The notes under the pieces: model-generated
What the model saw: only the letters and a program-made list of their open reading frames with translations
Told to the model about the DNA's origin: nothing
The model's database searches: none
Assembly: GCA_951406725.2 (NCBI GenBank)
Contig: OX597836.1
Location: 18,414,001-18,478,000 of the forward strand
Reading direction: 5' to 3'
Length of the DNA: 64,000 bases
Source of the DNA: Octopus vulgaris
Taxonomy: Eukaryota
In this document: in pieces, positions 31,631 to 61,942 of the stretch
Position numbering within the stretch: the stretch's first letter is position 1
How the letters are laid out: each line of letters opens with the position of its first letter
Position numbers and translations under genes: made by a program

Positions 31631-31927
31631 AGTTACGATATATATATTTTAAATATGTATTCAAGACCTCAAAAGAACACCAGACCGTCCACTTAAATCA
31701 TCATATCTTAGTCATGTTACATTTGGCGGTATTTCCCGATACGTATGTGTATGTATGTGTGTGCGTGTGTGTGTGAATGTGTATTAAACAAGAATATTGT
31801 TAACTAGGCGTAGGAGTGACTGTGTGGTAAGTAGCTTGCTTACCAACCACATGGTTCCGGGTTCAGTCCCACTGCGGTTCGGCAAAAGAGACCGATAGAA
31901 TAAATACTAGGCTTATGAGTCCTGGGT

Positions 31928-32540
31928 TCATTTGGAATGCTCACAGCAACCATATTCCTACCGCTCTATGTCACGCTGGTGAGACCCATATTGGAGTACG
32001 GAATTCAAGCCTCTTCTCCTTATCTCCTCAAAGACATACATCATCTCGGAAGAGTCCAGAAGCTGGCTACCCGCATGGTTCTTGGTCTCAAGCATTTGTC
32101 CTATGAAGAAAGGCTGAAGACGCTCGACCTTTATTCTCTAGAAAAACGCCGCCGCCGTGGTGATCTCATTCTCGCTCACAACATCATAAGCGGAAAGTGT
32201 AACCTCTCGAAAGAGCTGTTCTTCACTCCTGCTCCAGAGCGTCGGTTGCGGGGTCATTCCGAAAAGCTCTATCTGCGACGATTTCATCTCAATCGAAGGA
32301 GAGGGGCTTTCTCCGTCCGGGTTGCGGATCCGTGGAACAAACTGCCAGACGAGATGGTGAAGATGCCGACGACCGCTTTGTTCAAAGTCTCCCTTGACCT
32401 CAAGTGGCCTGAACTCTTTACATGAACACCACCCTGTACATAACTCCATGTCCCCCTACATGGCCTTGCTTTTTGCTTTTTGAGCCAAAAAAATTAACTT
32501 AACTTAACTAACTTAACTTAACTTAACTTAACTTAACTTA
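31928..32540 (+). mobile_element. 5'-truncated CR1/L2-group LINE: intact ORF2 C-terminus (to 32425), 3' UTR and (AACTT)n tail
   Basis: LYVTLVRPILEYG...SPY...RVQKLATRMV...LSYEERLKTLDLYSLEKRRRRGDLI...LRGH...FSVRVADPWNKLP is the typical CR1-group ORF2 end; pentamer tail at about 32496-32540. Confidence 0.92.
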
Positions 32541-37280: not shown

Positions 37281-39127
37281 AAATGAGGGTGAAAAATCGA
37301 TACTAATTTAATAATACCATCAATTTATATATATATATATATATATGCATGTATAAGTATATATATTACCTATATAATATATATACACATATAGAAAGAC
37401 ATATATGCGTGTGTATATATATGCATACATATCGATCTATCTATATATGTGTGTTTGTGTGTGTGTCATATAAAGAAAAATGTTATACACATTCCTACAA
37501 TACATACACGCATGGACGTACGTACGAGCAAGCGCAAAAAGACATTCTCCCAATTTTCCAACACCCAAGCAGTCACTCAACAACGCGCGTTCGAAACGCA
37601 CTCACACACATATGCACGCACACACAGAGAGGCGCGCACACACTTACACGTGCTCACGCATGCTGCAGAAAGTGTGCAGTAGTTAGAGAAATGCATCGGA
37701 TTGTGCAGTGAGTACAATATTTCAGTCGCACGCTGTTTAAACGCGCACCTGTTGTAGTCTAAATTCTCTTTTTTTTTTTTTTTCACCTGTGTGTGTCTCT
37801 CTTCGACACTGCACCGCCGTACTTGCACCGTCATCACCGACACCACCACCACCACCACCACCATTTTCCACAGTTATTAATAATCACTATAATTAATAAT
37901 AATCATCGTCATCGTTTTAATTTCTTTTTTTACTTCGTCATCGTCACTATTGTCATCACTTATGGTCGTCCGTCCGTCCATCGTCGTCATCATCCTCATC
38001 ACCACTGTAATGGTCATGCTATTGCCATCATCTTTGTCATCATCCTCATCATCGTCCTCAATATTATTGTCATTCTTCTTGCCGTCGTGGTCGTCATCGT
38101 CATCATCATCATCATCATCATCATCTTCATCAAACTCGTTGATGTAATTATTATCATCGTCATTTCGTTATTTATCGTTTTTTATCGAGTTTCTTGTTCT
38201 TTTTAGTATTGTCATCGTCGCTGTCATCATCATCATCATCACCGTTAGCATCATCAGCGTCGTCGTCGCACTAAATTCTTTTTCTGTTGGTGTTTTTTTC
38301 TTTCTAGCGTAGTTTTCTTCTTATTTATTTTTTTCACTATTTGCGTTTTTAGTCTTTGTTGTTGTTGTTATTTTTACCGTCGTTTTTTTTTTTTTTTTTT
38401 TTTTTTTTGGAAAGTTGTTGTCATATGTGTCTTATAATAATAATGGTTCCAAAGATTTTGGCAGATAACGTCTACAGCTGTCTGTGAGGTAACGTCCGTC
38501 AACGACGAATAGAAACAGCTACGACAACAACAACAACAACAACAACAGCAACAACAACGACAACAACAACGACATCGACAGAAAGAACAATAACAACAAG
38601 AGCAACGAGAAGATAAATAAAAGAAATTCGCAACTTCAACTTTAGCGACAACAACAGCAACAACATCTACATCAACGGGGGACATCAACGAGAACAAGAA
38701 CAACGACAATAGGACAGACATCGTTATCGGTGACACAACAACAACAACAAAAGTACCAGCAACAGCGCTAAAAGGAAAACAAACAGAAATTGAAATATAA
38801 ACACAATAACAACAAGTATAACAGGATATCATCATTATCATCATCACCAGCATCATCAACAACAACAACGGCACGATCAAGCCCTCTTCGTGGACACTTG
38901 ACTGCCTAGAAATAGCAGCGAAAAAAAAAACTTCCTTCGAAAAATATCGTATGCAGACAGACTTTTTACAGGAAACAAAACAAAATAATTAAAAGACGGG
39001 ATTGTCACGGCTAGAACACCTGATACAACTACCACTACTTCCTGCTAAATCGGGACTGACCTGGGGCTAAGCAACAGCAATATCTACAGGGTGACCACAG
39101 CCACAGCGAAGACATAAAAAATACAAC

Positions 39128-39168
<41 letters not shown>

Positions 39169-39260
39169 TACCCATATAAAAAGCGGCGACAACATCAAGA
39201 AGAATATCCCTATTCAATTACAGCAACAACAACAACAATATTGATATATTTAAAAAAATA

Positions 39261-39294
<34 letters not shown>

Positions 39295-39522
39295 GTTTTA
39301 CTGCTACTACTGCTACTGCTACTGCTGCTGCTGCTACTACTACTGCTACTACTACTTGATAAAAAAACAATTGTTAAAAGACATCAGTACCGTAAAACTA
39401 CAACATAAATATCAACAACAACTACGTTTATAAAACTTAAAGGAACAACAACAACAACAACAACACAGCAGCAACAACTACTAAATTATTAACAACCACT
39501 TCTACTGCTACTACTACTACTG

Positions 39523-39560
<38 letters not shown>

Positions 39561-39561
39561 G

Positions 39562-39617
<56 letters not shown>

Positions 39618-40330
39618 GTTGCTACTGTCGCTACTGTTACTACAACTATATCAGAGAGATTATAACATCTTCAACGAAAACATTAACAGCAACAACAAAA
39701 ACATAAACAACAATAATAATAACAACGAGAAAAGTAAAAGAGAAGGAGAGAGAGAAAGAGAGAAAAAGAGAGACAGACAGAAAGACAGACCGGTGGTGGT
39801 GAACGCTGACAACAAACTGACCGGTGAATTAAGGTGGACAGTGCCTTCAGAGTGTGTCACAGCGGGGGCAGCGTGGTGAGGGGCAGAGGGAGAGGAAGCA
39901 TAGAACATCATCATCAACAGCATTATCATTATCATCATCATCATCAACATCATCACCATCAACAGCAGCGGTAGCAGTAACAGCGCTTGCAGCAAGCACG
40001 AGCATCACCGGCAGCAGCATCAGCGGCATCACCTGAAGCAGTAAATATTGCTTTCATTATTAAACAAAGTCATCAACTTCGCCGCCGCCGCCGCCGCCGC
40101 CAGCAGCAGCAACTGTGACAACGTCATCATCATCACCACCACCGCCAACAACAACAACAGCAACAGCATTATCTTGTCGCCAGCATCCATCACCATCGAC
40201 ATCGCCAAAAGCAGCGACATCTACATTCATCATCAACATCATCAGCAACATCGTTTTCATCAACCGCTTAACACTGGAGAACAACATCAACAACGACAGC
40301 AGTAGCGCCACCATCACCACCATCGCCACC

Positions 40331-40362
<32 letters not shown>

Positions 40363-41088
40363 CAACAACAGTTGCAGCTGCAAAATCAGCTGCAAAGGAA
40401 GAAGGAGAGGGTAGAGGAAGATATATGTAAAAGACAAACGAGAGGTGCAGGAAGAGGGTAAGAGAGAGGAGGAGGAGAAGTGAGTGGTTGTGGTGGTGGT
40501 GGCGGTGGTAACGGTTGTTGTTGTAGCGGTGGTGGTGGTAGCGGTAGTGGTAGTGGTGGCGGTGGTGGTGTGGGAAGAAGTGTCGGGTGGGAAGTCAAGT
40601 GGACGCGACAGAAAGGAGTTGCTCTGTGCTCCGGGGGAGAGAAGAGTTCGCCGTGTAACAACAACAATAACAACAACACATACTACTACTACAACTACTA
40701 CTACTACCACTATTACTACTACAAATAATAATGATAATAATAATAATACCCACAAGAGGCTAAACATAGAGGGGACAAAATAATAATAATAATAATAATA
40801 ATAATAGTAATAGTAATAGTAATAATAATAATTATAATAATAATAATAACACCGCAATAACAATATCAACAACAATAATAAGCAATAATACCTACATAGC
40901 AACAACAATAATAACGGCAATTGCGACCAAAGCGGCGCGCCCAACGTCAGCGACAATAACAACAGCGACAAACAGTTATTTCAACAACAACAACAACAAC
41001 AACAACAACAGCGATAGCAAAAAAAAACACAAACAAAAAGACAGCGGTTGTAGTTGTAACACCAACGACATAGTTATTATCGCCATCG

Positions 41089-41128
<40 letters not shown>

Positions 41129-41542
41129 AATCACTGACGACATAGAATAGAGGAGGTGACAGCGAGGGTGGCACCAACAACAGTAAGAACAAGAACAATT
41201 GTTAACTGTAACATAAAAGAATAGCAGTGACAAGTGACAACGCAGCACAAAAGCAGCAGCAGCAGCGAAGCGTGAGGCAACAACAACAACAACAACAACA
41301 ACAAAAACAAGTACAGTAGTAGTAGTAGTAGTAGAAGAAAAAGAAAAAGAAGAAGAAGAGGAAGGGGAAGAGGAAGAGAGAGAAGAAGAAGAGGACAACG
41401 CAACAAAAACAAGCGTGTTGACGACACCCTCAGCAGCAGCAGCAGTAGCAGCAGCGGTAACGGCGGGAGTAATAGCAACAACAACCACAAAGTAACATCA
41501 GATGTAGTTGGAACAGTGATAGCAGTGACAGCAACAACAACG

Positions 41543-41573
<31 letters not shown>

Positions 41574-43415
41574 GCAACTACTACGATAACAGTAGCAACA
41601 AACGGCGGTGCCTCTGTCACCACTACTACTGCTGCTACCGCTGTTGCTGTTGCTGCAAGCAGTGACGACAACAACAACAACAACAACTGCTACAAAAAGA
41701 AGAAGAGAAACTTGCACGACCATAGAATTGGCAGGAAATAACGGCGGGTGACATCACAACGACAACAACAACAGCGACAATAAACGCGACAACAACTTTA
41801 TTAAGAGTTGCAGTAAGCAACAGGTGTGACAATATCACCGTCAGCACCTGTAGCAGTCGTAGGGACAGCAGCAACCAACAACAGCGACTAATAAGCAATA
41901 ACAACAACGGCAGCAGCAACGACAGCAACAGCAGCAGCAGCAGTAACGGACCAATCAACCAGCGGTTTAAAAACCGTTCCTACCTTTGTACTACCACCAC
42001 CACCACCATTACTTCACCTCCCCCTCTTCTTTATACCGCTGAATATAACATCAACCCCCACCGCCTCTATCAACAACACCAACAACAACAACATACTTTG
42101 AACATCACAATCAACAACACCACCTCATCTTACATACAACAACCAATAACAACATCAACAAATGACAATACACTTCCTCTAACATTTTCGACGGTCAAAA
42201 AAATACCTACTTCACCACCAACAACCACAAGACAACACTAAATTTTTAAACAACAACAACAATAGCCGAAACAATAAGATCAAGAGTACTAGTACCAACA
42301 CTGCCTAAAATACCTTCAGTGCCATTCGCCTTCTCACCGTAACACCAACACCACCACCACCACCACCACCATAATCAATACTACAATACTACAAGTGTAT
42401 ATATTTGTATATATAATAACAACAACACTACAACAATAGCATAACAGGACATTCATAACCTGACAACAACAACAAAAATAACAAGAATACTGCCTTGCTC
42501 AGCACTAACCTGACGGTGGTGGCAAAACAATAACAATTACAACAATAATAATAATAACAGCAGTATCGTTATTAAGAACAGTCGACTCTGATCTGCTGGA
42601 AATAACACTTTCCAAAATAACGGGATGGTCACGACGGGAATACTTTTCAATTGTTTATTTGCGCAGTCAGAGATGACCTCGGGTTAAACGACAATAGTGA
42701 TATATATATATAATATCGATAGCACTTAACAGCAACAACAAGAATAACAACAACAACAACAATAACAATAACAATAACAAAAAAAGGCATCGCCCTTCGA
42801 ACTCCCACGCCACCCACATTTACAACAACAAATTTTGTAACAACGCCACCATCGTCACCACAAGCAACAACAACAACAAAAACAACACGAGTGACACCTG
42901 TAAAAAGTACCACCATCATTAGCACAATAACCATCACTTCAAAATCTGTAACGTAAACGTCATCATCATCATCATCGTCATCATCATCATCACCATCATC
43001 GTCATCAGCGCTAACAGCAGCAGCACCACCGCCGCAGGCAGCATCACCTTTTCTATATTTTCCCTCTCACCGCAGCCCCTTTATTTTTTCCTAACTCCAC
43101 CGCCTCCTTACTTTTCTTCGACCTCCCCCTCCGCCTCTTTTTTCGTCGCACACCTCTCCATCCTCCCCCTTTAATACAACAAACGGTGCCACCATCACGC
43201 CTTTCTTGCATCATCATCATCATCATCATCATCATCAGTGTCATCATCATCATCATCATCATCGTCATCATCACCATCATCATCTTGATCACCTTCCTCA
43301 TCATCGTCGTCGTCATCGTTATCAACCCCTCTATCATCATTATCATCATCATCAACAATATCGCCGCCGTCATCGCTACCACCACCATCACTTCTGCAAT
43401 AACAACAACAACAGC

Positions 43416-43465
<50 letters not shown>

Positions 43466-43545
43466 AAACAACAGCAGCAGAACTTGCAGCAACAAGTGCA
43501 ACTAAAGTAGCAACAACATCAACACCAACACCAACAACTGCAGCA

Positions 43546-43885
43546 ACAAGTGCAATAATAATATTAATAACAACTGCACAAACAACAACACCTGCAACTA
43601 CAACAACAACTGTAACAAGTGCAATAATAATAATATTAATAACAACTGCACAAACAACAACACCTGCAACTACAACAACAACTGTAACAAGTGCAATAAT
43701 AATAATATTAATAACAACTGCACAAACAACAACACCTGCAACTACAACAACAACTGTAACAAGTGCAATAATAATAATATTAATACCAACTGCACAAACA
43801 ACAACACCTGCAACTACAACAACAACTGTAACAAGTGCAATAATAATAATATTAATAACAACTGCACAAACAACAACACCTGAAA
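43546..43885 (+). repeat. 72-bp minisatellite, about 4.7 near-identical copies
   Basis: ACAAGTGCAATAATA... recurs at 43546, 43615, 43687, 43759, 43831. Confidence 0.9.
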
Positions 43886-43966
43886 CAACAACACCAACAA
43901 CTGCAACAGCAGCAACAACAAAAGCAACTACAGCTGCAACAACAGCAACAACAAAAGCAACGATAG

Positions 43967-45133
43967 CAGCTGCAACAGCAGCATCAACTGCATCAACAAG
44001 CTGCAAAAATACCGGCACCAAAACGAAAAGCAGCAACAACCCTCACAGTCACAATAACTCCTCCGCCGGCCCCACCACTCACACCCTCATCGCCGCTACC
44101 CACAAGCACCACTATAGCAACAACAACTTCAACTACAACAACAACAACAGCAGCAGCTTCTGCTGCTGCTGCTGCTGCTGTTGCAGCCAAATCAGCAGCC
44201 TCGTCGGCGTCGGCATCATTAACAACAACAGCTCGGAGATTATCGTCAGCCGTTCCGCTCGATTTTTCCTCGTTGTCTTCATCGCTTTCCACATCGGTTC
44301 AGTCCTTATCGCCTCGACAACCACCACGGAAGCGGGGCCGAAGCCCACGCCCGAGTCCCAAGCCGAGCCCGAAACCAAGCCGGCTCCTTCGCTTTCATCA
44401 TTCGCAAAAACACAAGTCATCAGCGGCGGCGGCGTCACCGTCAGCATCATCATCATCATCATCGTTACCATCGGCGATACCACAACTGTTTTCGCAGGCA
44501 GCGGCGGCGTTAAAAAGTGTACCTTCGTCGGTTTCGACTCAATTGAAACCGTCGACACCGCCACCAAAGGGAGTACGAACGCCTACGCAAAATCGGAAAA
44601 CAACAACGGTAGTTCTCCTCCAACCGTCGGTACAGCCAAAGCAACAGCCACCACGCCGACTATCGCAAACACAATTACAACCACCGTCGCCCTCTCCACG
44701 CCGACTATCGCAAACACAATTACAACCACCGTCGCCCTCTCCACGCCGCTTATCAGACACACAACTACAACTACAACAACCTGTGTCCTTTACACGCCGT
44801 GCATCACAAACGCAACTTCAACAACCACCGCCGTCACCGCGACGCTTATCACAAACACAACTACAACCCCCGTCGCCCTCCCCACGCCGACTATCAGACA
44901 CACAACTACAACTACAACAACCGCCGGCCTCACCACGCCGCTTGTCGCAAACACAGCTCCAACCACAACAGTGGCCGCAAGCGAGCCCACGGCCAAGCCC
45001 AACGTGTCCCGTTTCGCCCACTCCATTTTCGGCTTCGCCTCCCTCTTCTTCGGCGCCTTCTTCTCCGCCGCCCTCTCCACCTTCGCCGCGATGTTGTGAG
45101 TGTTTCGGTTGTGGTAGTGTTCTGACGAGGAGA
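43967..45133 (+). CDS. Putative in-frame N-terminal extension of the SCY1-like protein (Ser/Pro/Thr/Gln-rich, SPRRLSQTQLQ repeats); true 5' boundary unknown
   Basis: The frame is open from after TAG 43964-43966 into the ATG at 45134, with no in-frame ATG. Repeat copies conserve RRLS and TQLQ through different synonymous codons. Confidence 0.55.
44651..44965 (+). repeat. 45/51-bp tandem repeat, 7 copies (PRRLSQTQLQPPSPS)
   Basis: Unit starts at 44651, 44696, 44741, 44792, 44837, 44882, 44933; all spacings are multiples of 3. Confidence 0.9.
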
Positions 45134-45283
45134 ATGGAAGTTTTATCCATGCTAAAATTGTCCTTAAACACTGACAATATTAATCCTATAACCAAATATT
45201 ATGATATAGGCAAACAGGTCGGCAGTGCAGGACCAGAAATGGTATGGAAGATTTTCGATGCAGTGCGCCTTGAGGACAAAAGA
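45134..45283 (+). CDS. SCYL2: Coding exon of a SCY1-like pseudokinase (SCYL2/CVAK104-type), start of the kinase-like domain
   Basis: Translates MEVLSMLKLSLNTDNINPITKYYDIGKQVGSAGPEMVWKIFDAVRLEDKR, resembling the SCYL2 N-terminus as I recall it (NPVTREFDVGRHIASGGNGLAWKIF). It is exactly 50 codons followed by AGA|GTAAGT (phase 0 donor at 45284). Could be an invertebrate SCYL2 paralog; the next exon (expected EVSVFxF-like) was not seen in the window. Confidence 0.8.
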
Positions 45284-45289
45284 GTAAGT
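45284..45289 (+). other. 5' splice donor GTAAGT; intron apparently runs at least 18.7 kb to the window end
   Basis: Consensus donor exactly where SCYL similarity ends; the frame then becomes T-rich and non-protein-like. Confidence 0.75.
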
Positions 45290-45731
45290 ACATATTTTAG
45301 TATCTGTTTCCTTCTCCCTTCTTCCTTCCATATATGTTTATATCAGTTGTGTTGGTTCGCAATGCTGTTATATTTTTCATTCGCTCTCCCAGTGTATAAC
45401 AACGATATCTAAGCGAGGCACAAAACTGCAAATATTGGGCGGCGGAGTGGGGGAGAGTAGTTTTTTCCTAATATTCGGTTGAAGTTTATCGAGGTCGGTT
45501 TTGCCTTTTATCCTTTTATCCTTTCAGGGTCGGTAAAATGTGTACCAGTCGTGTACCGGGGTCGATGTAATGACCAACACCCCCTCCCTCAAAATTTCAA
45601 GTTTTGTTTCTATAGCAAAAAGGGTTATTCATCCTTTCAGGGTCGATGAATTAAGAACCAGTTGTACACAAAAGTCAATGTTTAAGCCCCAAGCCCCAAA
45701 ATTGCTAACCTTGCGCCAAAAAAATCGAAAC

Positions 45732-45788
<57 letters not shown>

Positions 45789-46652
45789 TATATTGAAGTG
45801 TAGTATGCTTCATAATAATATTTAACACGCTTTTTAATCTCCAGTATTTCACTGGTACTGTAGTTTTTGTCGACCCTTCGCAAGGTTATCTGTCACATGT
45901 TTACAAAAAAAAAAAAAAAAACAGAAAGAAAAAACATGGAAAATATTTAAATCCTCTCTCACCCCACCATTTCTCTGATATTTTATTTAATGGACCCGAG
46001 TTAAAGAACAAAAGATAAAGGTGACAATAATTAAAAAGTTGCCATGCTTTCAACGGAATTTGAACTCGGATCTTAAAGGGCCGTAATTCGACACTGGGTA
46101 ACTATTTTCTCCAACGTTCCAACAATTATTTCAACCCACCATGCTGTAGTTGAACATTTCTACCCCACCCTCAATATTTAACTGGTATATTATTTTTTCC
46201 ACCCCCCAAAAAGCATAAACTGTTTTTAAAAAGCGCAACTCTGAATTTACTAGGATTTGAACTCAAAAAGTCAAGGGAGACAACTCTACAGTTACTACGC
46301 TAATCCATTCGTCTGAAAGTTGGGTAATTATTCAAAATATGTAACGTATTGATTTTCTGTTACAAAGACACTAAGTCTAGAATATAAAGGAAGGGCACTG
46401 CATTTTGCATTAAACGCGGTACTTTGTGATTTTTTTTTTTCAAAAAAAAAAACCCCAGCTGACAATTGGACTAAATTCTTTCCCAGTATTTATTCTGGTC
46501 CCTTCATATTCTACATACAGCATCGCGAAAAAGGGTTAAGTTTTTTTTTAACGAAAAAGGGTTAAGTTGAAATTTTTTTTTCACCTTTTTTATTTTATTT
46601 TATTTTATCGGAGATAAATTCGATTAAACCTGACCAGAGACTAAACAACAAC

Positions 46653-46759
<107 letters not shown>

Positions 46760-46796
46760 TAATAATAATAATGATAATGAAATAATAATAATAATA

Positions 46797-46850
<54 letters not shown>

Positions 46851-46865
46851 GTAATAATAGTAGTA

Positions 46866-47003
<138 letters not shown>

Positions 47004-47024
47004 TAATAATAATAATGATAATGA

Positions 47025-47070
<46 letters not shown>

Positions 47071-47085
47071 GTAATAATAGTAGTA

Positions 47086-47139
<54 letters not shown>

Positions 47140-47154
47140 GTAATAATAGTAGTA

Positions 47155-47211
<57 letters not shown>

Positions 47212-47226
47212 GTAATAATAGTAGTA

Positions 47227-47284
<58 letters not shown>

Positions 47285-47469
47285 TAATAATAATTAAAGA
47301 ACACTATTGAATAAAAGAAGTAGCCTCTATGTGGTTGGTGTTCCTGCTAGAAATAACAGGTAAATATGCCTCAAACTTAAAGAAAAAGAAAATATAATAA
47401 TCAAAATATAAATATATATATATATATATAAAAACTGCAGCAATCACGTTGTTGTTGAAGTTGCTGTTG

Positions 47470-47501
<32 letters not shown>

Positions 47502-48399
47502 GGTGGTGGTGGTGGTGGCTATTATAACCAATGTTATTGTAGTTGTGGTTTGTGCTGGGGGGAAGTAGAGTGGCAAAATCATTAGAGAAATAGTTTGAAG
47601 CATTGCTTCCGGTTCCTTTACGGACCTGAGTTCAAATGCTGCGCAACTCAATTTTTGCCCTTCATCCTTTCAGCGCAGATAAAATAACGTAGCAACCTTC
47701 TACGGAGATCGATTTAATTTTTTACCACCCCCACCCCTCACACACACACACACACACACACATACACACACACATCTCTCATTTCCTAAATATCAAAAAA
47801 CATTTATTGCAATTGTTGTTGTTATTCGTGATGCAGTTTTTGTGTTTGTTTAACTCCCGGTCAGACGCGGTCGAGCTGACCAATGACCAATGACCAAAGG
47901 TATTCCAGTCGTGACCACCCCGTCTTTTATTTCCCTATGATCACAGAGAGGATAAACCGCTCACCATTTAACTCCTGAGTGCTTTTGCTAAGACTGTGGA
48001 TATCGGGGGGAGATTAGGTTACTATTTCTAGCAGACATGTGTGTCTCAGTTGCTGGTTCAAGGTGAGGCGTGACTTTAATTGAAACTGTGCAGTGCTTCT
48101 AAATTCTGTAACGCTACATAAATTTGACAACATATGTGGGGGCGGGGTACAGGTTCCTAATAGTTTTCACTCGGCTTGTTAGAAATAGCAGCTAACTCTC
48201 TCTCAAACTCATGCTTTATTCTCTTAACAGAAAATTTAAAAGGCATGATACGTTGTGTAAGAGACAGCCTCACTTACGTGGTGATCGCAGTGGAACGCAT
48301 TTGCGTCTGGTGAAAGGGTGTGGTGCTAAGCTTCACCACCATCGCCACCACCGCTGTCATCAGCAATAACACAAACATCGGCAACGAGCAAATGAGGGA

Positions 48400-48586
48400 A
48401 CCTCTACGTGGTCGCTCTGCATGCTAAAAATAGCAGCCAATTCCCCCAACCCACCCCCATTCAAATCACATACTAGTGTCTTTGATAAAAACACGTTGAA
48501 TGACGTAGTCATGTGTTAGGATGGTCATGGCTGGAAAGTCTTTAGTCCTGGATTTTTGTCTATTAAACCTGACCAGAGACTAAACA
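48400..48586 (+). mobile_element. Old ~180-bp interspersed repeat (family E) ending in an (AAC/AAT)n tail
   Basis: CTCTACGTGGTC...CTA(G/A)AAATAGCAGC...GGATGGTCATGGCTGGAA...CTGACC...CTAAACAAC; related copies near 35820, 38880, 42580, 47820(-), 48870, 51340, 58340(-) and 59375. Confidence 0.65.
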
Positions 48587-48589
48587 ATG

Positions 48590-48626
<37 letters not shown>

Positions 48627-48641
48627 CAACAACAACAACAA

Positions 48642-48683
<42 letters not shown>

Positions 48684-48691
48684 TAATAATG

Positions 48692-48757
<66 letters not shown>

Positions 48758-48766
48758 ATAATAATG

Positions 48767-48837
<71 letters not shown>

Positions 48838-49239
48838 TAAACAACACCATTGAATAAAAGAAGTAGCTTCTATGTGGTTGGTCAAACTGCTAGAAATAAC
48901 AGGTAAATATGCCTCAAACTTCTCAATGTCATTTAAAATATGAGAGGGTATATATAATGTATATTGCAGAGTAGAAAATAAGGCGAGATGGTTATGGCTG
49001 GGAACATTTTGATAGTAGGTCTTTCTGTCAGTTCAGGTCTGAACCCGCTTCTAAACAACAACCTGCACTATCCCCAACAACAACCACAGCTACAACAAGA
49101 AGAACACGATCTCCACCAAAAATATCACCATCCCCGTTACCAGCAAGAACAACATTTGCAACAGCAACAACAAGAACACGCACAACAACACTAAGAAAAG
49201 CAACATCTACACCACAAACAATAACAACAACAACAACAT

Positions 49240-49272
<33 letters not shown>

Positions 49273-49555
49273 TATGTCTATATCCCCTGCTAAGTAGCAG
49301 ATCATATGTCGATGTTTGACAGAAAAGCACTAAAAGTGGATCAAATTGTTACAAATTGGAAAATTCTTTTGGTGAACATGTTGGATTAGTAAACGTCACA
49401 CCGGATCAAGTGACTTAATTATCTAATTATCTCCCTTTACATTCAGAGTTCAAATATTGTTGCCGATAAGTATAGAAGTGGGATTAATAAAATAAGCTAA
49501 CACCTATAGCAATAAATTGAATGTGTAGTCTTGTGCCTATATTCAAAATCATATG

Positions 49556-49595
<40 letters not shown>

Positions 49596-50479
49596 CGGGT
49601 TTTGTAAATTCGATATTGTTTCCATTTATTTTTCTCTTGCGGCTCTTATTTCTTTTTCTTCTCGTTAATGATTTATATGATCCAAACTGTTAGATGTTCT
49701 TCCTGTTCCTCGTATTACTGGATTTATTTTCATTGTAAATATTATTTGATTCTTGCTGTTTCGTCTCGTAATTCCGATTTTTTCGACCACCACTTTTACT
49801 CCTCTACCTCCATATATATATTTCTTTATTCATACTTCGTAAGCTCCCTAAGTCTAAAGTGTGTGTGTGTGTACGTGTGTTAATGCTTTTTATGTGAAAT
49901 TGTACATAAAATCAATTGACCATTACTCAATACAGTTTAGTAGTCTGCATGTTTATCAACTGTTTCAAAGAAAAAGTTGATAGTGACTTCAAAGTCTTGT
50001 GTATGTGTGTAAGCACTGAAATATTTTATATTTTGTAACCTATTCCATTAATCCCGCATTTTTTTCGTCGCCTTTGTCCTTCTACCGGTCATTGAGGTCT
50101 TGTAAAGGAAGATGAGTAAGGTCCCTTTCTGTTCTAACAAAACAATTTTAAAAAACAGAAATACGAAGAAACGCTTATAATTTTAACTCACAGTACATAT
50201 GGTAGAATTTCTACGTTACTATTATTTCTATTTTTCTAATTATTATTATTGTTGTTGTGTTATTGATATTTTTGCCGTTTTTGCTGTTATTATTATTATT
50301 ATTTTTACTTATTTTTATTTGTATAAATTTGTAAATCTTCCAAACAGTTGCTTCCTTATATAAAAAATTTCGACTTTGCATTCGATTTCGGTCAATAGTT
50401 GAGCTTGACTAAAGCGTAACACACGAACGCACATTTAGCTCAGCAGAAAAAAATAATACGCTAGATCCATCGCTCCATT

Positions 50480-50760
50480 TTTTTCAGCTTACTATTCCTG
50501 GAAGTGTTGTGGAGGTACAAACCTCTGGCATCTCCTCCACGTGGTTATTTCAGAAGCAAGCTTCGTTACAGTTTTCAGCTGGATTCCCAAGCATGACCAG
50601 CTGTGACTATGGATATTATACAACCATCTTGTTCTTGGTCTTCCCTTGGGATAACCTACCTGTTGGATTGGTTTGAAGAATCCGGATCTTTTCCTTTTGA
50701 ATAATTTTATACACACGCTTTCCGAACGTAAACATAACAGTGACAGGATGTTGTCTCAGT
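50480..50760 (-). mobile_element. RTE-clade LINE 3' end relic, similar family to 17340-17870
   Basis: PKGRPRTRWLYNIHSHSWSCLGIQ...TTWRR matches the GRPxxRW...WR RTE C-terminal motif. Confidence 0.7.
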
Positions 50761-51994
50761 TTTAGACGTAGCAAATGATTTTAGCTAAATAGAGGCCATC
50801 GATTGGTTAAAATTCGAAAAATCAAACTACGTTAAACTTACAAATTACAATTTTCTCAAGAAAGCCAAAAGAAAAAAATGTTTTATTTTGACGCATTCTA
50901 CCAGTATACGAAGTTTAAAAGTGTTCAATTGACTAGAAATTGTGTTGAAAACTGCCGTTCCAAAGGAAAAGATCCAAGAATCCGTCTAATTTTCCCGCGA
51001 CATTCAAATCCCATATGTGGCTCCGTAGTGGTGGTGGTGGTAGAGAGGAAGTGGTAAGACTCCCTAGTCTCTGAAATATACATCCTGTCGAGCAGCATTC
51101 CTCCAGAAATAATGATTGTTATGAAAGAACAAAGTTAAAATGGCGGACTAAAATTGCTTTGCAGTATTTAGTGATTACGTCCCTTGAACGTTCAGAACTT
51201 TCAATAGATTTGTTTGTCAACTCGATCAATAATCGATACGAATTACCAATCAGTGGATATACTCGATTATACATCTCATCTTCCCTTTCCACCTCACCCA
51301 ACCCCATCTGCTCTAAAACCTAACAGCGAAAAGGACTCGACGAAGAAGCCTCTGCATGGTCTACGGACATGCCAAGAGTGGCAACTAAATCATTCTCGAG
51401 TTATACCACGCGGTCCTCGTTTTTTTCTGTTTTTGCAACAATTTCCCTTTGGTGACTGAGAAACTGGATTTACTACATATCGAGTGGTAAAGGTGGGATG
51501 GTCACCATTGAAATCATTTAATCTGTCTGTACGAATAGAGTTGATTTGGGCCTAAACAACAAGAACAACAACAACAAAGCACATTCTTCGATTCGTTACG
51601 TTGGGAGACGAGGTAAACTGCCGAACTAAATGGTTTTGTAGTACTTAGTTATCTCCCCTTTACTGACTTCTGAATGCGAATACTACTAACATTGACTTCA
51701 CTTTCTAACTTTTCGGTGAAACGGAAAGGATGATGTCACTTCAATACAATTAAATACCAGGCATGTGCAAAGGGTTGGGGAGGAGGCCTTGTACTTAATT
51801 TAGAAATTAACCTTACTAGTGTCTTTCATACCTGATCTATTCTTCTTTGCTTTTGTTTTTGTATTCATAATGAATTCGATGTAGCCCCACTCGCCCCCCC
51901 CCATCCACAGACGCGCGCACTTGCACTCTCACACCATTCCTGTAATCTTTACCTATTTTGTCCAGCTTCAATTGTCAACTAATGAAATTAGTAT

Positions 51995-52205
51995 CGGCGA
52001 GCTGGTAGAATCGTTAGCATGCCGGGGCAAAATGCTTAGCGGCATTTCGTCCGTCTTTACGGTTCAAATTCCGCCGACGTCGAATTTGGCCTTTTATCCT
52101 TTCGGGGTCGATAAATTAAGTACCAGTGAAACAGTGAAGTCGATGTAACCGACTAGTCCCCTACCTATAAAATTTCAGGCCTTGTGCCTTTAGCAGAAAC
52201 GATTA
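51995..52205 (+). mobile_element. SINE family B, older subfamily with a different 3' end
   Basis: GGCGAGCTGGTAGAATCGTTAGC...AAATTTCAGGCCTTGTGCC; similar diverged copies near 20610, 22670, 33270, 45470 and 52760. Confidence 0.78.
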
Positions 52206-52236
52206 TTATTATTATTATTATTATCATTATTATTAT

Positions 52237-52321
<85 letters not shown>

Positions 52322-52325
52322 GGTG

Positions 52326-52382
<57 letters not shown>

Positions 52383-52989
52383 TTCAGTAATCTTATTTTT
52401 ATCACGTGTTTTCACTGCACTACCGGCACAGCTGTGTGCCTTGGGTATGTGCTGTGGTTTGTTGTGGTGTTCTTGTTTCCACTGCATTGGTTGGTGGTTT
52501 AAAAAAAAACCCTAGGATGAAGAAAGAGAGGTGAAAGAAATCCCGAAGAACTCGAACCACGCAACCCCTTTGTACCTATCACTAACCACGTGTGTTAACC
52601 AATTTCACTAAATTCTCTTTTTCCTATAAAATTAGTTGCGCGCGCAAGTGTGTGTAAACGATACTAAGTAAAGCTCTCCACTACTTTTGTGAATTGTTTT
52701 CTTGATGTTCCCGCTATGTGTCGCCCCTCGTAGCAAATAAACAAATTACTATTGGACAGTGAACTGAGAGAATTATTAGTGCGTCGAGCAAAATGTTTAC
52801 CGGTTTTTCGTCCGTCCTTGCATTCTGAGTTCGAATTCTCCGAATGTCGACTTTACCTTTCATCCTCTTGGGGTCGATGCAATTAGTACCAATTGAGCAG
52901 TGGGATCCATGTAATCGACCAGCTCCCTAAAAATTTCAGGCCCTATATCCACAACTGAAAGGATTATCATTTTTGTGGCAGTTATTGAT

Positions 52990-53125
52990 ATAGGTGCAAG
53001 AGTGGCTGTGTGGTTCAGGGTTCAGTCCCACTGCATGGTACCTTGGCCAAGTGTCTTCTACTATAGCCTTGGGCCAACCAAAGCTTTGTGAGTGGATTTG
53101 GTAGACAGAAACTGAAAGGAGCTCG

Positions 53126-53171
<46 letters not shown>

Positions 53172-53375
53172 ATTTGCCCCACTCACCACCACCCTGACAA
53201 CCAGTGCTGGTGTGTTTGCAATCCCGTAACGTAGCGGTTGGGCAAAAGAGACTGATAAAATAAGTACCAAGCTTTAAAAGCATTATTCCCAGGGTCGATT
53301 TGTTGGACTAAACCCCTGGGGCGGTGCCCCAGCATGGCCGCTGTCAAATGACTGAAACAAGTAAAGATAAAAAAT
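52990..53375 (+). mobile_element. SINE family A, diverged
   Basis: Same head, microsatellite and tail layout. Confidence 0.8.
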
Positions 53376-53926
53376 AAAAAGTTCACTGACCGGGCCCGCG
53401 TGAATGGTTGAACCACCCGCTTCAGATATATTACGTTCTCATTTATATTTACATATATATATACATATATTGAGAATTGCTACATAGATGAATTTTAGCT
53501 TGCGTGCGAGACGGTTTGCGTGAATATATGTACACATGCTTTTATGTGTATAATTTAGATTCATATTCATACGTCTGTATATGAATGTATGGCGTTTACG
53601 CGCATCCTTTTGTGTATGTTGATATATATATGTGGATTTTAATATAAATATGTATTGCAGTATTTATAACAGGTTTAATTTCTATGCATTAATTTGTACT
53701 GTCTTCATTAACGGCAACAGGTTTTTTCCTCGGTATTTTCCTCGGATTTTATAATTTTTATAAGTTTTTATATATATATACATATATTTTTGACCTTTTT
53801 GTTTATCGCTCGAAGATTGACCGTTTTTTTCTAAAGGGCCAATCAAACAAGTCCATTTCTTTTTAAAGGTGTAGCGTTTGTAAGAGTATAGATTGAATTA
53901 ATATATATGTTCCATTCTAGCAAAAA

Positions 53927-53964
53927 CTGTCTGATGAACGGCAACGAGAAACTCAGAGTAACAG
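53927..53964 (+). ncRNA. Compact minimal hammerhead motif
   Basis: CTGT-CTGATGA-ACG-GCAA-CGA-GAAA-CTCAGAG-TA-ACAG: stem I CTGT/ACAG, GNRA loop, near-palindromic stem III. The base pair of stem II is mismatched. Confidence 0.65.
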
Positions 53965-54002
53965 ATTTTGTTGATTTTTCTGCTGCTTAAAATAAAGTAT
54001 AC

Positions 54003-54053
<51 letters not shown>

Positions 54054-54247
54054 AAGAAAAAAATGAGATTTTTAAAATTTATTTTTGCTTTTCATAATCA
54101 ATTCATCGATTCAATGTAAATTCCCGCCAATACTTCACTGTCGCCTTCCCCCTCTCCCCTTCTCTCTACCTGACCTCAATTACCGCCAATGTCATTGGTT
54201 TCATTCATCTCTCTTCTTTCGAACTGAAGGGTGCCAGGTGGTGGTGT

Positions 54248-54307
<60 letters not shown>

Positions 54308-54320
54308 CAGCAGCAGTAGT

Positions 54321-54358
<38 letters not shown>

Positions 54359-54482
54359 TAGTAGTAGTAGCAGCAGCAGCAGCAGTAGTAGTAGCAGCAG
54401 CAGCAGTAGTAGTAGTAGTAGTAGCAGCAGCAGCAGCAGTAGTAGTAGCAGCAGCAGCAGTAGTAGTAGTAGTAGTAGCAGC

Positions 54483-54527
<45 letters not shown>
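54248..54527 (+). repeat. (AGT)n/(AGC)n compound microsatellite
   Basis: Directly visible. Confidence 0.95.
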
Positions 54528-54530
<3 letters not shown>

Positions 54531-54900
54531 TGTGGTGGCGGTGGTGGTGATGGGTTGTGGTGGTGGAATTGGTGGAAGGATATCGTAAAACGTGTGGAAA
54601 ATCGATCGTCGTGGGCGAGATGAAGTGGCGAGACGCCGAGAAAGGCGGAAGAGGAGGAGGAGGAGAACCAGAATGACTAAAAGAGGTCAAAGTCACTGCT
54701 TGGAAATTCTCCTTGACCCCTGGCCGAAACTTGCTCTTCAAATGGACACCAACTTATAAATGTCGGACACACACATTCACACACACACACACACACATAT
54801 ACAAACACACACACAAACACAAGATATATATATATACACACACAACCATCCACACAGGCACACACACATATATACACATACACTCGCACACACCCATATA

Positions 54901-54953
<53 letters not shown>

Positions 54954-55352
54954 TCAATAAAACAGGTTAACCTTCTCGCTAAACCAAGTCATTGATTCCA
55001 TTTTCATATTCTTTTATTATTTTTCTGTATATTTTATTTGTTTATTTATTTATTTTGGTGAAGAAGAAAAATTTTTTTTTTCCTTTTTTTGATATATTTT
55101 TGTATCTTTCTTTTAATGTTTCGAAAGGTCGTACCCGTAGCCATCTAAAGTCATTTACACATCGCTAACATATATCGCTTTTAAAGCAGGCCCTCTTCAA
55201 TTCTGTCTTTCTTTGCATATATCTGTGCGTGTGTGTGTGTATGTGTGTGTTCGACATTTATAAGTTGGCACAATATATATATACATGCATACATACAAAG
55301 ATATATATATATATGTATGCATGTATATACATATATATGCATGTATGTATAT

Positions 55353-55400
<48 letters not shown>

Positions 55401-55685
55401 AGAATTCACAAAAAAAGACAAAAGACGAAGGCAGGTGGTGTAGAAAACAAACAGATGTATTAGTATAACGCTCAGGAATTGAAAAAGTCTTTAACGTTTC
55501 GAGCCTACGCTCTTCTACAGGAAGGAACACAGAAAGAAACAAGAAGAGAAAAATATGTGTAGTGGCTACCGATCTATCATATATTTATGTATGTGTATGA
55601 CTGTTGTGCATGTGTGTGTGTACATATATAAAAAATGAATAAATGCATATATATAATTTTTAATATACATACAGACATACATATA

Positions 55686-56100
55686 TACAAGGTGTTTGGG
55701 GCTTAAATTTGAGAGTTTGCATAAAAGGAAACGAAAGCACAATATCCCATCCCCAAAATAAAACTTTTTTTTTTTCAATAAAAAAGCATCAACTTGATTA
55801 TGGCTGGGAGATGAGTTTTCTCAAAGCTGCCTCTTTCAGCCTCCATCACAGCCTCAACACAGTGCCAGAGCCTGCAGCATGCGTTCCTCACTACGTCCCT
55901 GGGAAAATCTTTTTTAAATCTCCCTGTCCTTATCCACCAGCTCAGACTTGGTGTTGCAAGCAAAGCGATAGGTGTCTTTCTCTGCCATACCCCTCACATA
56001 GTAGTCAATGGGATTACAATCGAGAGAATTTGAAGCACAGAAATCAGGACTGATGAAGTCGTAGAAATTCTCTAACAACCACGTATGACTTTTTACGGAG
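55686..56100 (-). mobile_element. Tc1/mariner transposase C-terminal relic with probable terminal end
   Basis: Minus strand reads SNSLDCNPIDYY (SPDxNPxD-like) and RDVVRNACCRLWHCVEAVMEAERGSFE; TA-CAAGGTG at about 55686 resembles a TIR end. Confidence 0.7.
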
Positions 56101-56196
56101 GTATGCTAAGAAGTCGAATATATATATATACACACATACATGCATATATACAGTCATACATACACACACACACACACACATTGAGAGAGAGAGAGC

Positions 56197-56255
<59 letters not shown>

Positions 56256-56756
56256 ACAGAAACTGGAAGAAGTCCATCGTGTCATCCCAGATGGAGACAA
56301 GTACCAACAGTTGTATGTGGTCTGCTTGAACAATTGTGATGATCTCTTCACATGAAACCATTGGTTCTCTTGTTAATCCACAAATAAAAAGAAAGAAATA
56401 TTTATCCACCAATGCAGGGTTGAGTAACAATCACTCGTACTATTCGGTATTAGTGTGTATGTATATATATATATATATCCTTCTAGGCATATATATATCC
56501 TTCTAGGGAATCCTTCTAGGAGAAGGTAACTCAGGTAACTGGGATGACTCCGACATAAAACCTGCGGCTCAGTGGTTACCGATGATGTTGACTTGTTCTT
56601 CTTTTCGGATTATGGCTGCTGTTGCTTAGTGAGTGAGATTGACTCAGTGCACAGCCTTTCCTCACTTTAAAAAAATCTTCTTGTACAGGCATTGCACGAT
56701 AACAACATTGATTAAGCTTCGTGCAATGGCCATACTCGATAACGAGGGAGCAGCCA

Positions 56757-56787
<31 letters not shown>

Positions 56788-57003
56788 CGTATACACATAC
56801 ATATACAACTTAAAATAAAGGTTATAAACCTCATTAAGGGATAATAAAATACAATGAAAATACTGGTTAGTTACCAAACCATAGAAAGTTCAACTATAAG
56901 GTAACTATATAAGCCATGGCTCATATATTTATATAGTTAAAGAATGAGGAAAGATGGAGAAGTAATGAATAAGCTATTAGTTATTAATTATAAGATATGA
57001 CAT

Positions 57004-57087
57004 GTCTGACAGCTGTTTCGATTCAGTAATCTTTAGATAATTAATTTACAAAAACAAAATCATTATGATAGGACTATCTTCAGAGGT
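57004..57087 (-). ncRNA. Degenerate hammerhead-like motif
   Basis: Minus strand CTGAAGA...CGAAA-CAGCTG-TC with palindromic stem III; stems I and II are weak. Confidence 0.4.
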
Positions 57088-57551
57088 AGTAAAGATATAC
57101 CGATTAGAAATACTTGTTGAGATAACGGCTGCAAACTGTTAACTGATAGCGTATATACAAAAAGAGCCGGTTATAGAAGGCATCAGTCTAACATAGGGGG
57201 AGAAGGTAGTGTATATTTTTATGTCTTAACGTAAGAAGAGATTAATATGATATCATAGGGTATTGAGAAGGAGGAAAAGAAAGAGAAAAGAAAAGAAGAA
57301 AAACGCATGTATATATAAATAATAATGCTATATAATACTATACTTGTCTATAATGCTGCAATACAAAAACAATTTAAAGTTATAAAATTTAAGTCAAGTA
57401 GGAACAAACAGTGGCAATTAAGTATTAACCGGAATTATGAAAAAGGGATAAATAATTTCTAAATGTAATAATAACTAATTGCTTCGGTTTATAATAATAA
57501 ATATTATTTTATTAATTAGCTCTCTCCTTATTCATGAGTATGTGTGTGTGT

Positions 57552-57612
<61 letters not shown>

Positions 57613-57763
57613 AGAGTGTGTACATGTATGTGTCTGTGTGTCTTTGTGCTTGTTCTCCAGCATCGCTTGGTAATCGGAGGGGATTGGATAAACAGCTAAA
57701 GCTAATTTGATATGTAAACAGATACACGGATAGGCAGACAGGGAGCATACAGACACAGACACA

Positions 57764-57802
<39 letters not shown>

Positions 57803-58612
57803 CCACATACACATACACACATACACATATACTCACACACACACATACAGCTAGATAGATACATTTGAAGACAAGTAAATATGCTTACAATTTCTAAATA
57901 TTGGTGTGAGCGTGTGTGTGTGTGTGTGTGTGAGCGCGTGTATGTGTGTATACACACCATTCACAAACACATACACATGTACACAGCCCCTAGTGGGTAA
58001 TAAAAAAAATCATACACATGTACACATGTATGATGTTTATTATGTCATCATATCAGGTGATTGCGGTAGAGTAGAGTATTGTAAAGAGTAAAAACAGTTA
58101 AAAGTTAAACGGCCTCCATGTAAAACAGAGTTCATAGGTCGCGGTTTCGAATCACATCTGCGTAATAACTTTCTCATCATTCGTTTTTTTTTTTTGTTTT
58201 TTGGTTGTTTTTTTTTTTTGTACCATTCGGTTTTAAAATGCATGAACATCACTCAATACCCGAAACTTACAAAATAAAAATACGAGGTATTTCATTTCTG
58301 CTGTAATCCGAAGTATTTCGCTCAATTTCTCCTTCATTATTTGAGACGGTCACGCTTGATTTGCGCGAGATTTGGCTGTTATCTCGAGCGAGCTACGTAA
58401 CCATATAGAGGCTTGATTTATTGGGTGTCTGCGTGTGTGTGTGAATGTGTATGTATGTATGTATATGTGTGTGTGTGTGCACGCGCGCAACATGCTTTGC
58501 TGTTTATGTGGAGAGGGATATACACACACATATATATGCATGCACAAGCATACACATACATGCACAGACTCCCAAACATACACAAACACACACATACACA
58601 CACACACATACG

Positions 58613-58797
58613 CACGCAGGAGTGACTATGTGGTAGCTTGCTTACCAACCACATGGTTCCGGGTTCAGTCCCACTGCGTGGCACGTTGGGCAAGTCCCTT
58701 CTACTATAGCCTCGGCCCAACCAAAGACTTGCGAGTAGATTTGGTAGATGGAAACTGAAAGTAGCCCTGTCTCTTTCTAAGAAGCCCGTCGTATATG

Positions 58798-58857
<60 letters not shown>

Positions 58858-59070
58858 TGTCTGTCTGTCTGTGTTTGTTTGTCCTCTCCCCATCGCTTGT
58901 CAAGCGATGCCGGTGTATTTACGTCCCCGTAATTTATATGTTCAGCAAAAGAGACCGAAAGAATAAGTACTAGGGTTACAAAGGATAAGTCCTGGGGTCG
59001 ATTTAAGCAACAAAATCTGGTGCTCCAGCATGGCCGCAATTAAATGACTGAAACAAAAATAAAAAAGAAT
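58613..59070 (+). mobile_element. SINE family A, diverged
   Basis: Same head, microsatellite and tail layout. Confidence 0.8.
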
Positions 59071-60336
59071 ATATATTCACATATATATGCATTCATATAT
59101 TCTCATGACTGCCAACAGAAAGCTTCTTAGTCAGTGAGGTTCCATGTGACCTTTAGAGGTCCAAATTAGATTTCGTTGGTAGAAATTTGTGCGCAATGTG
59201 AATTGGTTATACAAATATACGAAATATTTTAACAATTTCTTATACAATTCCTAACAATATTTAATTATAAAATTATTACAGGATTTCGTAAACATCGAAT
59301 GCTTCTAGGGGGGTCCACGTGGGTACGATAGGAATTAAATCGGTCAATAGACAGAAAATAGTTGAGCACCACTGCTCTATGTGGTCGCTGGACTTGCTAA
59401 AGATAGCAGTCAAATGTGATAGAATTCTCATCCTACTGTCTGAAAAGTAGTAAACGCGGGGCTTGCCATGGTCTGAGAAAACTTTTGATCATGGACCTGC
59501 TCGATCATGTCTGACCTGTGGTTAAACAAGATTAGCAACACAAGCTACATCAGCAATAACAGCGATCACAGTACCAATAACATAACGGCAATAAGAACAA
59601 CAACAATGCTATCGCAGACAACATTAACAACAATAGCAGTAAAGGCAGCAACAACATCCCCGACTTCCTACGCAACCGTTGAGCCTGGATGCACATTCAG
59701 CCATCCGTCGATGATCTCGGTGTCAGGGGTCGATCTGCTTCCTCTTTGGCGGGTCTTACGAATAGCAAAGGACCACGACTCGACTCGGACTTCTCCCAAC
59801 TGCGAGCTCTGCAACAGCGGCAGCAACAACAACAGGAGTAAAATCATTCAACGACGGTTGTAGCAACAACAACATCAACAATAACAATTACAACAACAGT
59901 GAAATAACTGACAACTGCAGGAACAACGCTAGCTGCAACAACAACAACATCAGCCGCAGATTCAACAACAACAACAATAACTACAACACCAACAACCAAG
60001 AACAACAACAACGACGGTAGCAGCGATAATAACAAGGGTTACAACAAGAGCAACGCAAACAACGTTAAGCACAACACCACCACGACCACCTGTCTCTGGT
60101 ACATGCAAAAACACTAACAGAGGCGCGTTAAAACAACGTTTGATTAGTAACACACTCCTTAAACACGCGTGCGTCAGAAACATATGTAACATACACACGC
60201 GCACACGAAAGCGCACACTTACCGCACACAAGAGATTTAAAAGAGAGAGACAGAAAAAAAAAACAGTCGTGCGTTTAACATACATCGTACACAGACGTTT
60301 CAGGCTAAAAACGGATTTAAAAGATAAAGCTATAAC

Positions 60337-60412
<76 letters not shown>

Positions 60413-60600
60413 TCGTTCACGAACACACAGACACACATTGAGAACAAATTCGTATATATATATATATATATATATATATACAAATATATGTATAATAGTC
60501 TATTAAGATACGTTATAAATTATACATGCATTAGATAACGCATGAGTTCCATATATATATATATATATACATGAATATATATACATGAATATATACGTGC

Positions 60601-60635
<35 letters not shown>

Positions 60636-60824
60636 CGTGTGTGTGTGTGTGTATTTGTGTGTGTGTGTTTGCAGATATTTGCCCGTGTGTTTGCGTACAC
60701 ATGCATATATGTATGTATATATGTATGTAGACAGACTGTCTAGAAATAGACTTTCACATAAAAAAAAGTACGCACGCACGTAAGCATATCACATCTAAGC
60801 ATGGTATTCTTACAACACACACAC

Positions 60825-60863
<39 letters not shown>

Positions 60864-60969
60864 GAACATCAACAACATACACATACACATAAGTTAGTAA
60901 AAACTCAACGTGTCAACACAGCGTTTTCGCACAACGGTTACACACAGCACGCGTGTACCACATTCAAGT

Positions 60970-61006
<37 letters not shown>

Positions 61007-61569: not shown

Positions 61570-61602
<33 letters not shown>

Positions 61603-61857: not shown

Positions 61858-61942
<85 letters not shown>

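Follow-up and report, generated by a model that had tools for sequence, protein, structure and literature searches.

Extensions of proteins that begin at codons other than AUG have been compiled by Ivanov et al. (2011; PMC3105428), and the longest in that compilation comprises 300 codons, whereas the arm described here from the invertebrate Octopus has 340-388 codons and tandem RRxS repeats, and would thus exceed the longest of that list if it is indeed translated. VANGL2-Long (PMC11065751) is an AUA-started extended isoform made beside an AUG form, as we propose for the Octopus arm; however, its extension has 48 aa, is conserved in vertebrates and has an AUA start proven by mutation, whereas the Octopus arm is approximately 7 times longer and its AUA start is putative. 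Initiation by conversion of AUA to AUI has been reported (PMC9825173) for the tau circRNA, a circular RNA, in human cells; the Octopus codon at 44114 is likewise an AUA one edit away from a start, known here from sequence alone. In the SCYLs described in work on SCYL2/CVAK104 (PMC4774220), the kinase domain is N-terminal, whereas the Octopus exon places a long arm ahead of it. The lophotrochozoan SCY1-like protein 2 records P0002, P0003, P0004 and P0026 have a Cys cluster in common with the arm and RRxS motifs in their C-tails, and the repeat arm is found in none of them. Our literature search, which left most subscription papers and the supplements of cephalopod-editing studies outside its scope, returned no relevant paper on a non-AUG extension in octopus, on octopus SCY1 or on A-to-I start gain in octopus.

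The locus lies in a 64-kb window of Octopus vulgaris DNA, by which we mean the whole stretch that was analysed, and its features are collected in Table 1. We report that approximately 340-390 ATG-less codons in this window appear to evolve like protein code, and that a second, much longer protein, begun at a non-standard codon, is probably translated from this gene as well. Readings in which the arm is translated, taken together, are in our judgement very probable. An annotation based on ATG would lose approximately 36-41 kDa of protein, including an ancient Cys cluster and an array of eight phospho-motif sites.

Table 1. Features of the ATG-less extension and its surroundings (window coordinates)
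Feature	Position	Strand	Basis
Triplet-repeat-rich, ATG-depleted region, probable very long 5' leader (putative upstream limit)	37724..43966	+	ATG counts; RNA-like cover only from ~43853
In-frame TAG bracketing the extension	43964..43966	+	Inside X3 record 22, 0 other letters across 43900-44111
ATG-less in-frame N-terminal extension, 389 codons, basic, P/S/T/Q/A-rich	43967..45133	+	Purifying selection from ~44260 on
In-frame ATA, A at -3, candidate start (375 codons)	44009..44011	+	Putative start
In-frame ATA, A at -3, candidate start (360 codons)	44054..44056	+	No listed change in X3 or X20
In-frame ATA, A at -3, G at +4, candidate start (340 codons), one base off ATG	44114..44116	+	Context
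CAG/CUG hairpin	44148..44171	+	Fold, z -2.4 for 44085-44245
Isolated RRLS motif	44234..44245	+	Translation
Seven repeats, core (P/T)RR(L/A)S(Q/D)TQLQ, units of 45 and 51 nt	44651..44962	+	Sequence
Out-of-frame minimal uORF, Met-Leu-stop	45091..45099	+	Sequence
Cys cluster CCECFGC, last Cys 8 residues ahead of the conserved Met	45092..45112	+	Homologue comparison
Strong-context ATG and first 50 codons of SCYL2-like kinase-fold domain; donor GT at 45284	45134..45283	+	tblastn; contig exits

An ATG-less open frame ahead of the SCYL exon

As originally predicted, the frame of the SCYL exon is open from 43967; it comprises 439 codons up to the donor GT, and its earliest in-frame ATG, at 45134, is preceded by 389 ATG-less codons. 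With the in-frame TAG lying directly 5' of it, the extension is an open, stop-bracketed 5' stretch with no in-frame AUG before 45134, the arrangement expected of a non-AUG extension. The length of the frame is by itself no evidence here, because an overlapping Thr-rich frame (43015-45099) runs for 694 codons without a stop, yet does not pass the test for selection described below. That Thr/Ile-rich frame contains many ATA codons upstream and stops 34 nt before the main ATG, and could serve as a non-AUG upstream ORF. Directly 5' of the arm, approximately five near-identical 72-nt tandem repeats (97%) occupy 43545-43898, and an X3 contig terminates inside them.

The + strand contains no ATG between 42676 and 45090, where 18 are expected, and none of the 47 NTG triplets there is ATG, whereas in the flanks the share is approximately 0.28 (p 2e-7). 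No other of the 64 triplets is as strongly depleted over 37724-45133 as ATG (14 against 78.6 expected; 13 against 74 in 37724-43966, the flanks being close to normal), which has a ratio of 0.18 against 0.68-0.75 in the flanks, and the depletion persists when microsatellites are masked. Within the arm, depletion of out-of-frame ATG is not significant (1 against 2.1 expected). The 7.4-kb region is rich in CpG and in triplet repeats and has 203 ATGs on the - strand; the 14 on the + strand include three start-stop elements and another that reads Met-Leu-stop. The single ATG of 42676-45133 is that of the out-of-frame Met-Leu-stop uORF of Table 1. A TCAGT at 37722 resembles the initiator consensus. 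5' leaders are known to be poor in upstream AUGs (PMC7889888), and 37724-45133 looks like a scanned leader of 5-7 kb.

The near-cognate codons lying in frame and 5' of the selected part are CTG at 43970 and 43988, both in poor context, and the three ATA codons of Table 1, among which 44114 has the best context. Good-context near-cognates are not enriched in the SCYL frame, with 3 against 2 and 5 in the other frames. The AAA context of ATA 44009 was noted by Ivanov et al. for EIF4G3 (PMC3105428); in reporters tested in mouse cells, the yield of AUA was no more than 5-10% of that of a Kozak AUG (PMC5778536). ATA 44054 is unchanged in organism E (run X20), and ATA 44009 falls in a zone of unlisted differences of that organism; ATA 44114 sits within 80 repeat letters that were skipped in the contig comparison, where the RNA-like letters are unread. 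A start at 44114 assisted by the CAG/CUG hairpin was rejected, since the spacing is 34 nt and the helpful distance approximately 15 nt. The NCN triplet register shifts from the Thr-rich to the SCYL frame at 43999-44000; an extra base or frameshift fusing the two frames near 44000 was rejected, as the listed records of all four compared runs contain no gap there and the fusion would yield no ATG.

Relationship to SCY1-like proteins

The final 60-odd codons of the frame match SCY1-like protein 2 of Lineus, Tubulanus and Babylonia in a protein search, and tblastn of P0002 against the window gave 64% identity over 64 aligned columns (E 2e-18). The end of the exon is thus homologous to the kinase-like domain at the N-terminus of proteins named SCYL2; these homologues carry Pkinase PF00069. 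In the 64-kb window, tblastn found exon 1 and no further SCYL exon, so the first coding intron exceeds 18.7 kb (45284-64000). Pfam returned no family for the 439-codon frame, the 50-codon exon or the Thr-rich frame, and the PDB search returned generic kinases only. In homologue P0026, whose closest Atlas clusters are arthropod, flatworm and other invertebrate sets, HRN and GFY replace HRD and DFG; the corresponding exons of the Octopus gene lie outside the window. We call the gene SCYL2-like, with a likely trafficking function by family; its pseudokinase status, its central HEAT repeats, its C-terminal coiled-coil or clathrin-binding segment and its orthology to human SCYL2 are putative.

Among 111 hits (P0002-P0112), the exon-1 motif is present in 102, the conserved Met in 55, and at least 10 residues before this Met in 31. 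At least two Cys occur within 20 residues in 25 of these 31, and a Cys at -7 to -9 in 22, although the query contained the Cys cluster of the window and could favour Cys-bearing hits. The last 15 arm codons match this cluster, which in the window ends at -8; the nearest homologue is P0005, with 51 of 64 positions identical. Because the Cys-rich end is common to 25/31 homologues, only the long RRxS-repeat part looks lineage-specific. The original prediction of a lineage-specific disordered module missed by annotation from ATG 45134 therefore may hold for the repeat part, whereas the Cys-rich end is shared and RRxS repeats also occur in C-tails of the family. Its premise that SCYL2 begins almost directly with the kinase-like domain applies to the described SCYLs, whereas database homologues carry Met-started extensions of 10 to approximately 240 residues, including named records from Lineus, Tubulanus, Pomacea, Biomphalaria and Potamilus; the first Met in unnamed gene calls may stand for another codon.

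No database protein with the repeat arm was found by protein searches and a HMMER scan, and the exact Met-started read-through peptide is absent from the protein collection searched. P0006 and other repeat matches were set aside as likeness of composition only. In four of the five full-length species, the homologue C-tails hold 5-7 RRxS motifs, and the Pomacea records hold one; those of P0002, P0003, P0004 and P0024 have 5-7 each, several as repeats of RRPSTHS- or RRLSTQS-type, and it is possible that the C-tails of this invertebrate SCYL group form a multi-site PKA cassette. The weak similarity of the arm repeats to these C-tails (E 0.048, against the window alone) does not establish a shared origin.

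Selection on the reading frame

Selection on the frame was examined by comparison with organism E, a single diverged species seen through run X20. Its contig keeps the frame, with piece changes of 0, -18, -36 and -9 (net -63 nt), although two small gaps lack an individual listing and indels in triplet-repeat DNA come preferentially in multiples of 3. Of the 63 differences, 40 are listed, and 26 of these leave the residue of the SCYL frame unchanged, where base-matched placement predicts 14.8 and CpG-matched placement 14.6 (p ~1e-4). The same substitutions are synonymous 5 times in the Thr-rich frame (10.5 expected), which we reject as the coding frame on this count, and 7 times in the +1 frame; the antisense frames were also rejected, the one that shares third positions reaching p 0.01-0.02 but being broken by stops.

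When a cluster of six beside an indel is dropped, 24 of 34 remain synonymous, divided equally between the sequence upstream of the repeats (12/17) and that in and after them (12/17), and when the 12 unlisted changes in 44192-45284 are all taken as non-synonymous, p is still 0.013-0.032. The listed synonymous changes include first-position changes of Leu, which count for coding because triplet phase alone would not favour them. One listed change would give a stop by itself, but together with a second base change in the six-change cluster it yields Gln. The pN/pS of the extension is 0.17-0.22 for this one species pair. The few listed arm differences of organisms C (2) and D (1) are synonymous, most of theirs being unlisted, and a single 1-nt gap in X16 record 5 falls somewhere within 44869-45730, in exon or intron.

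The signal begins at 44260, near codon 98, so that selection over the full 389 codons is not established. The claim of selection holds from approximately 44260 onward, whereas all three listed changes in codons 19-22 (44022-44030) are non-synonymous; none is listed in 44031-44109, and approximately 11 differences in 43916-44020 are unlisted.

That the stretch is an untranslated leader whose triplet-repeat origin mimics a frame, with AUG 45134 as the sole start, would suit a region that is triplet-structured, poor in stops, overlapped by the 694-codon frame and prone to indels in multiples of 3. However, the synonymous excess is specific to one frame, in non-repeat sequence and against CpG-matched nulls; the Cys cluster is conserved at the protein level; and the antisense frame sharing third positions (p ~0.01-0.02) contains stops. 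We consider a purely untranslated leader improbable.

Repeats and composition of the arm

The repeat spacing of 45, 45, 51, 45, 45 and 51 nt and the codons quoted in the original prediction are present as stated, as is the isolated RRLS upstream, at 44234. Six of the seven units carry RRLS; the fourth reads TRRASQTQLQ, with RRAS instead. The seven 30-nt cores differ from their consensus by 17 distinct changes. Of these, 12 are silent when read as SCYL-frame codons (6.8 expected, p=0.003) and only one is silent in the overlapping Thr-rich frame, which bears out the claim that they alter the latter. In organism E, the repeats are 12 codons shorter at one spot and 2 at another. The arm has a computed pI of approximately 12, a net charge of +36 to +40 and 68-69% P/S/T/Q/A, and contains 8 RRx[ST], 26 [ST]P and 16 [ST]Q motifs. 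No Met occurs in its 340 codons (p 0.03-0.0004 for a Met frequency of 1-2.3%).

Probable transcripts that contain the arm

The stretch is contained in 20 of 24 listed runs, none of which is on record as RNA, and the RNA nature of X3 and X20 is our guess. Four runs (X3, X16, X17 and X20) were compared with 43900-45730; their contigs are graph paths rather than molecules and drop rare forms. In X20, record 16 (organism E) is a 2614-nt contig colinear with 43916-45284 that then continues with 1134 nt from elsewhere, and depth is 0 in the intron bins of 45326-45449. In X3, record 22 (organism A) covers 43900-44680, contains no other letters in the readable parts, reaches 47 nt further 5' and passes unbroken through the TAG; record 25 leaves the genome at 45284 and continues for 2061 nt, and depth is 23-37 in the exon and 3.6-5.2 in the intron. 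By contrast, the contigs of X16 and X17 continue into the intron, as DNA would. Because contigs exit at the donor and intron depth is low, X3 and X20 behave as spliced RNA; both include the arm in full, and X3 also the upstream TAG. Provided that these runs are RNA, the arm is joined to the main CDS in X20 record 16 and in X3 records 22 and 25, and rather than starting only downstream of approximately 44960, the RNA-like contigs span 43916-45284. An interspersed repeat of high copy number lies at approximately 45500-45700.

Proposed initiation of a long isoform

We consider leaky scanning to be the probable explanation, the long isoform starting at a near-cognate codon and the short one at AUG 45134. 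In the contigs, a single exon joins the end of a long AUG-purged leader to the extension and, after it, to the first part of the SCYL2-like domain. Scanning ribosomes would meet no AUG for at least 2.4 kb; some may start at a near-cognate between 43970 and approximately 44260, most likely AUA 44009, 44054 or 44114, and would make an isoform larger by approximately 36-41 kDa, whereas others would pass, or re-start after the Met-Leu uORF, and use AUG 45134 for the short isoform. Leaky scanning has been argued for ANKRD42 (PMC3105428) and shown for VANGL2, precedents for the Octopus arm. If the arm does arise in this way, the locus illustrates how AUG-free triplet-repeat leader DNA can turn into a protein arm under selection.

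The best-surviving alternative, which we nevertheless think unlikely, is that the arm starts at an AUG after all: the species or its relatives would have a genomic ATG at 44114, and the ATA would be a private allele, a recent species-specific change or an error of the assembly (compare human FNDC5). Within the unread stretch, 44114 is the sole in-frame codon one base off ATG, in A-3/G+4 context; listed changes upstream of it are synonymous in 0 of 3 cases and downstream in 24 of 31 (Fisher p 0.02), and the named mollusc and nemertean homologues begin their extensions with Met. On the other hand, a plain AUG-started arm leaves the lack of Met in 340 codons unexplained, although descent from an AUG-free leader could account for it, and all readable parts of 43900-44680 in X3 match the window, from which we infer that the assembly is accurate near 44114. 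A word share of 0.94 was rejected as a sign of a hidden base difference, the likelihood ratio of approximately 6 being confounded by repeat copy number. Base 44116 is the one point that separates near-cognate initiation, an editing-made start and an assembly error.

Slightly less likely still is an AUG-bearing upstream exon spliced into the frame, for instance at the phase-0 acceptor-like site 44302. Acceptor-like AGs occur at 44186, 44302 and 45117, and the loose contig ends considered here are only those listed; however, X3 record 22 and X20 record 16, from two organisms, run unbroken over these sites at full depth, although minor forms could escape, and synonymous changes at 44260 and 44293 lie 5' of 44302.

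RNA editing is heavy in coleoids, and U-A-G is a preferred context of ADAR. A44116 lies within a U-A-G triplet, so that A-to-I editing could turn AUA 44114 into AUI, read as AUG, and ADAR activity would turn on the long isoform; within the intron, near 47460, a GUU-rich tract could form a duplex with 44100-44135 (-43.6 kcal/mol). This duplex is unspecific, however, because (GUU)n would hybridise with any (AAC)n tract; moreover, local folds leave the 44116 site mostly unpaired (P 0.15-0.22), and X3 record 22 has no A>G at ATA 44009, ATA 44054 or the TAG. We regard an editing-made start as very improbable. We think equally little of the wider scenario in which an arm of approximately 340 residues with PKA sites was recruited from an AUG-purged triplet-repeat leader of several kb and is switched by editing, which selects between isoforms.

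As for the role of an arm translated by leaky scanning, RRxS is the PKA consensus, and Cys clusters adjoining basic tracts are often S-acylated. The predicted arm would be disordered and strongly basic, its eight RRxS motifs adjoining the old Cys cluster, and it is most likely a membrane tether, formed by S-acylated Cys and the basic tail, whose charge is switched by multi-site phosphorylation of PKA type; this proposal is drawn from the RRxS, Cys-cluster and charge motifs only. Membrane binding reported for the N-terminal domain of SCYL2 (PMC4774220) is in keeping with such a tether.

Elsewhere in the window, fragments of ORFs occur at 31919-32425 and at 12781-13576; by eye, the former resembles the tail of a LINE reverse transcriptase and the latter a mariner-type transposase.
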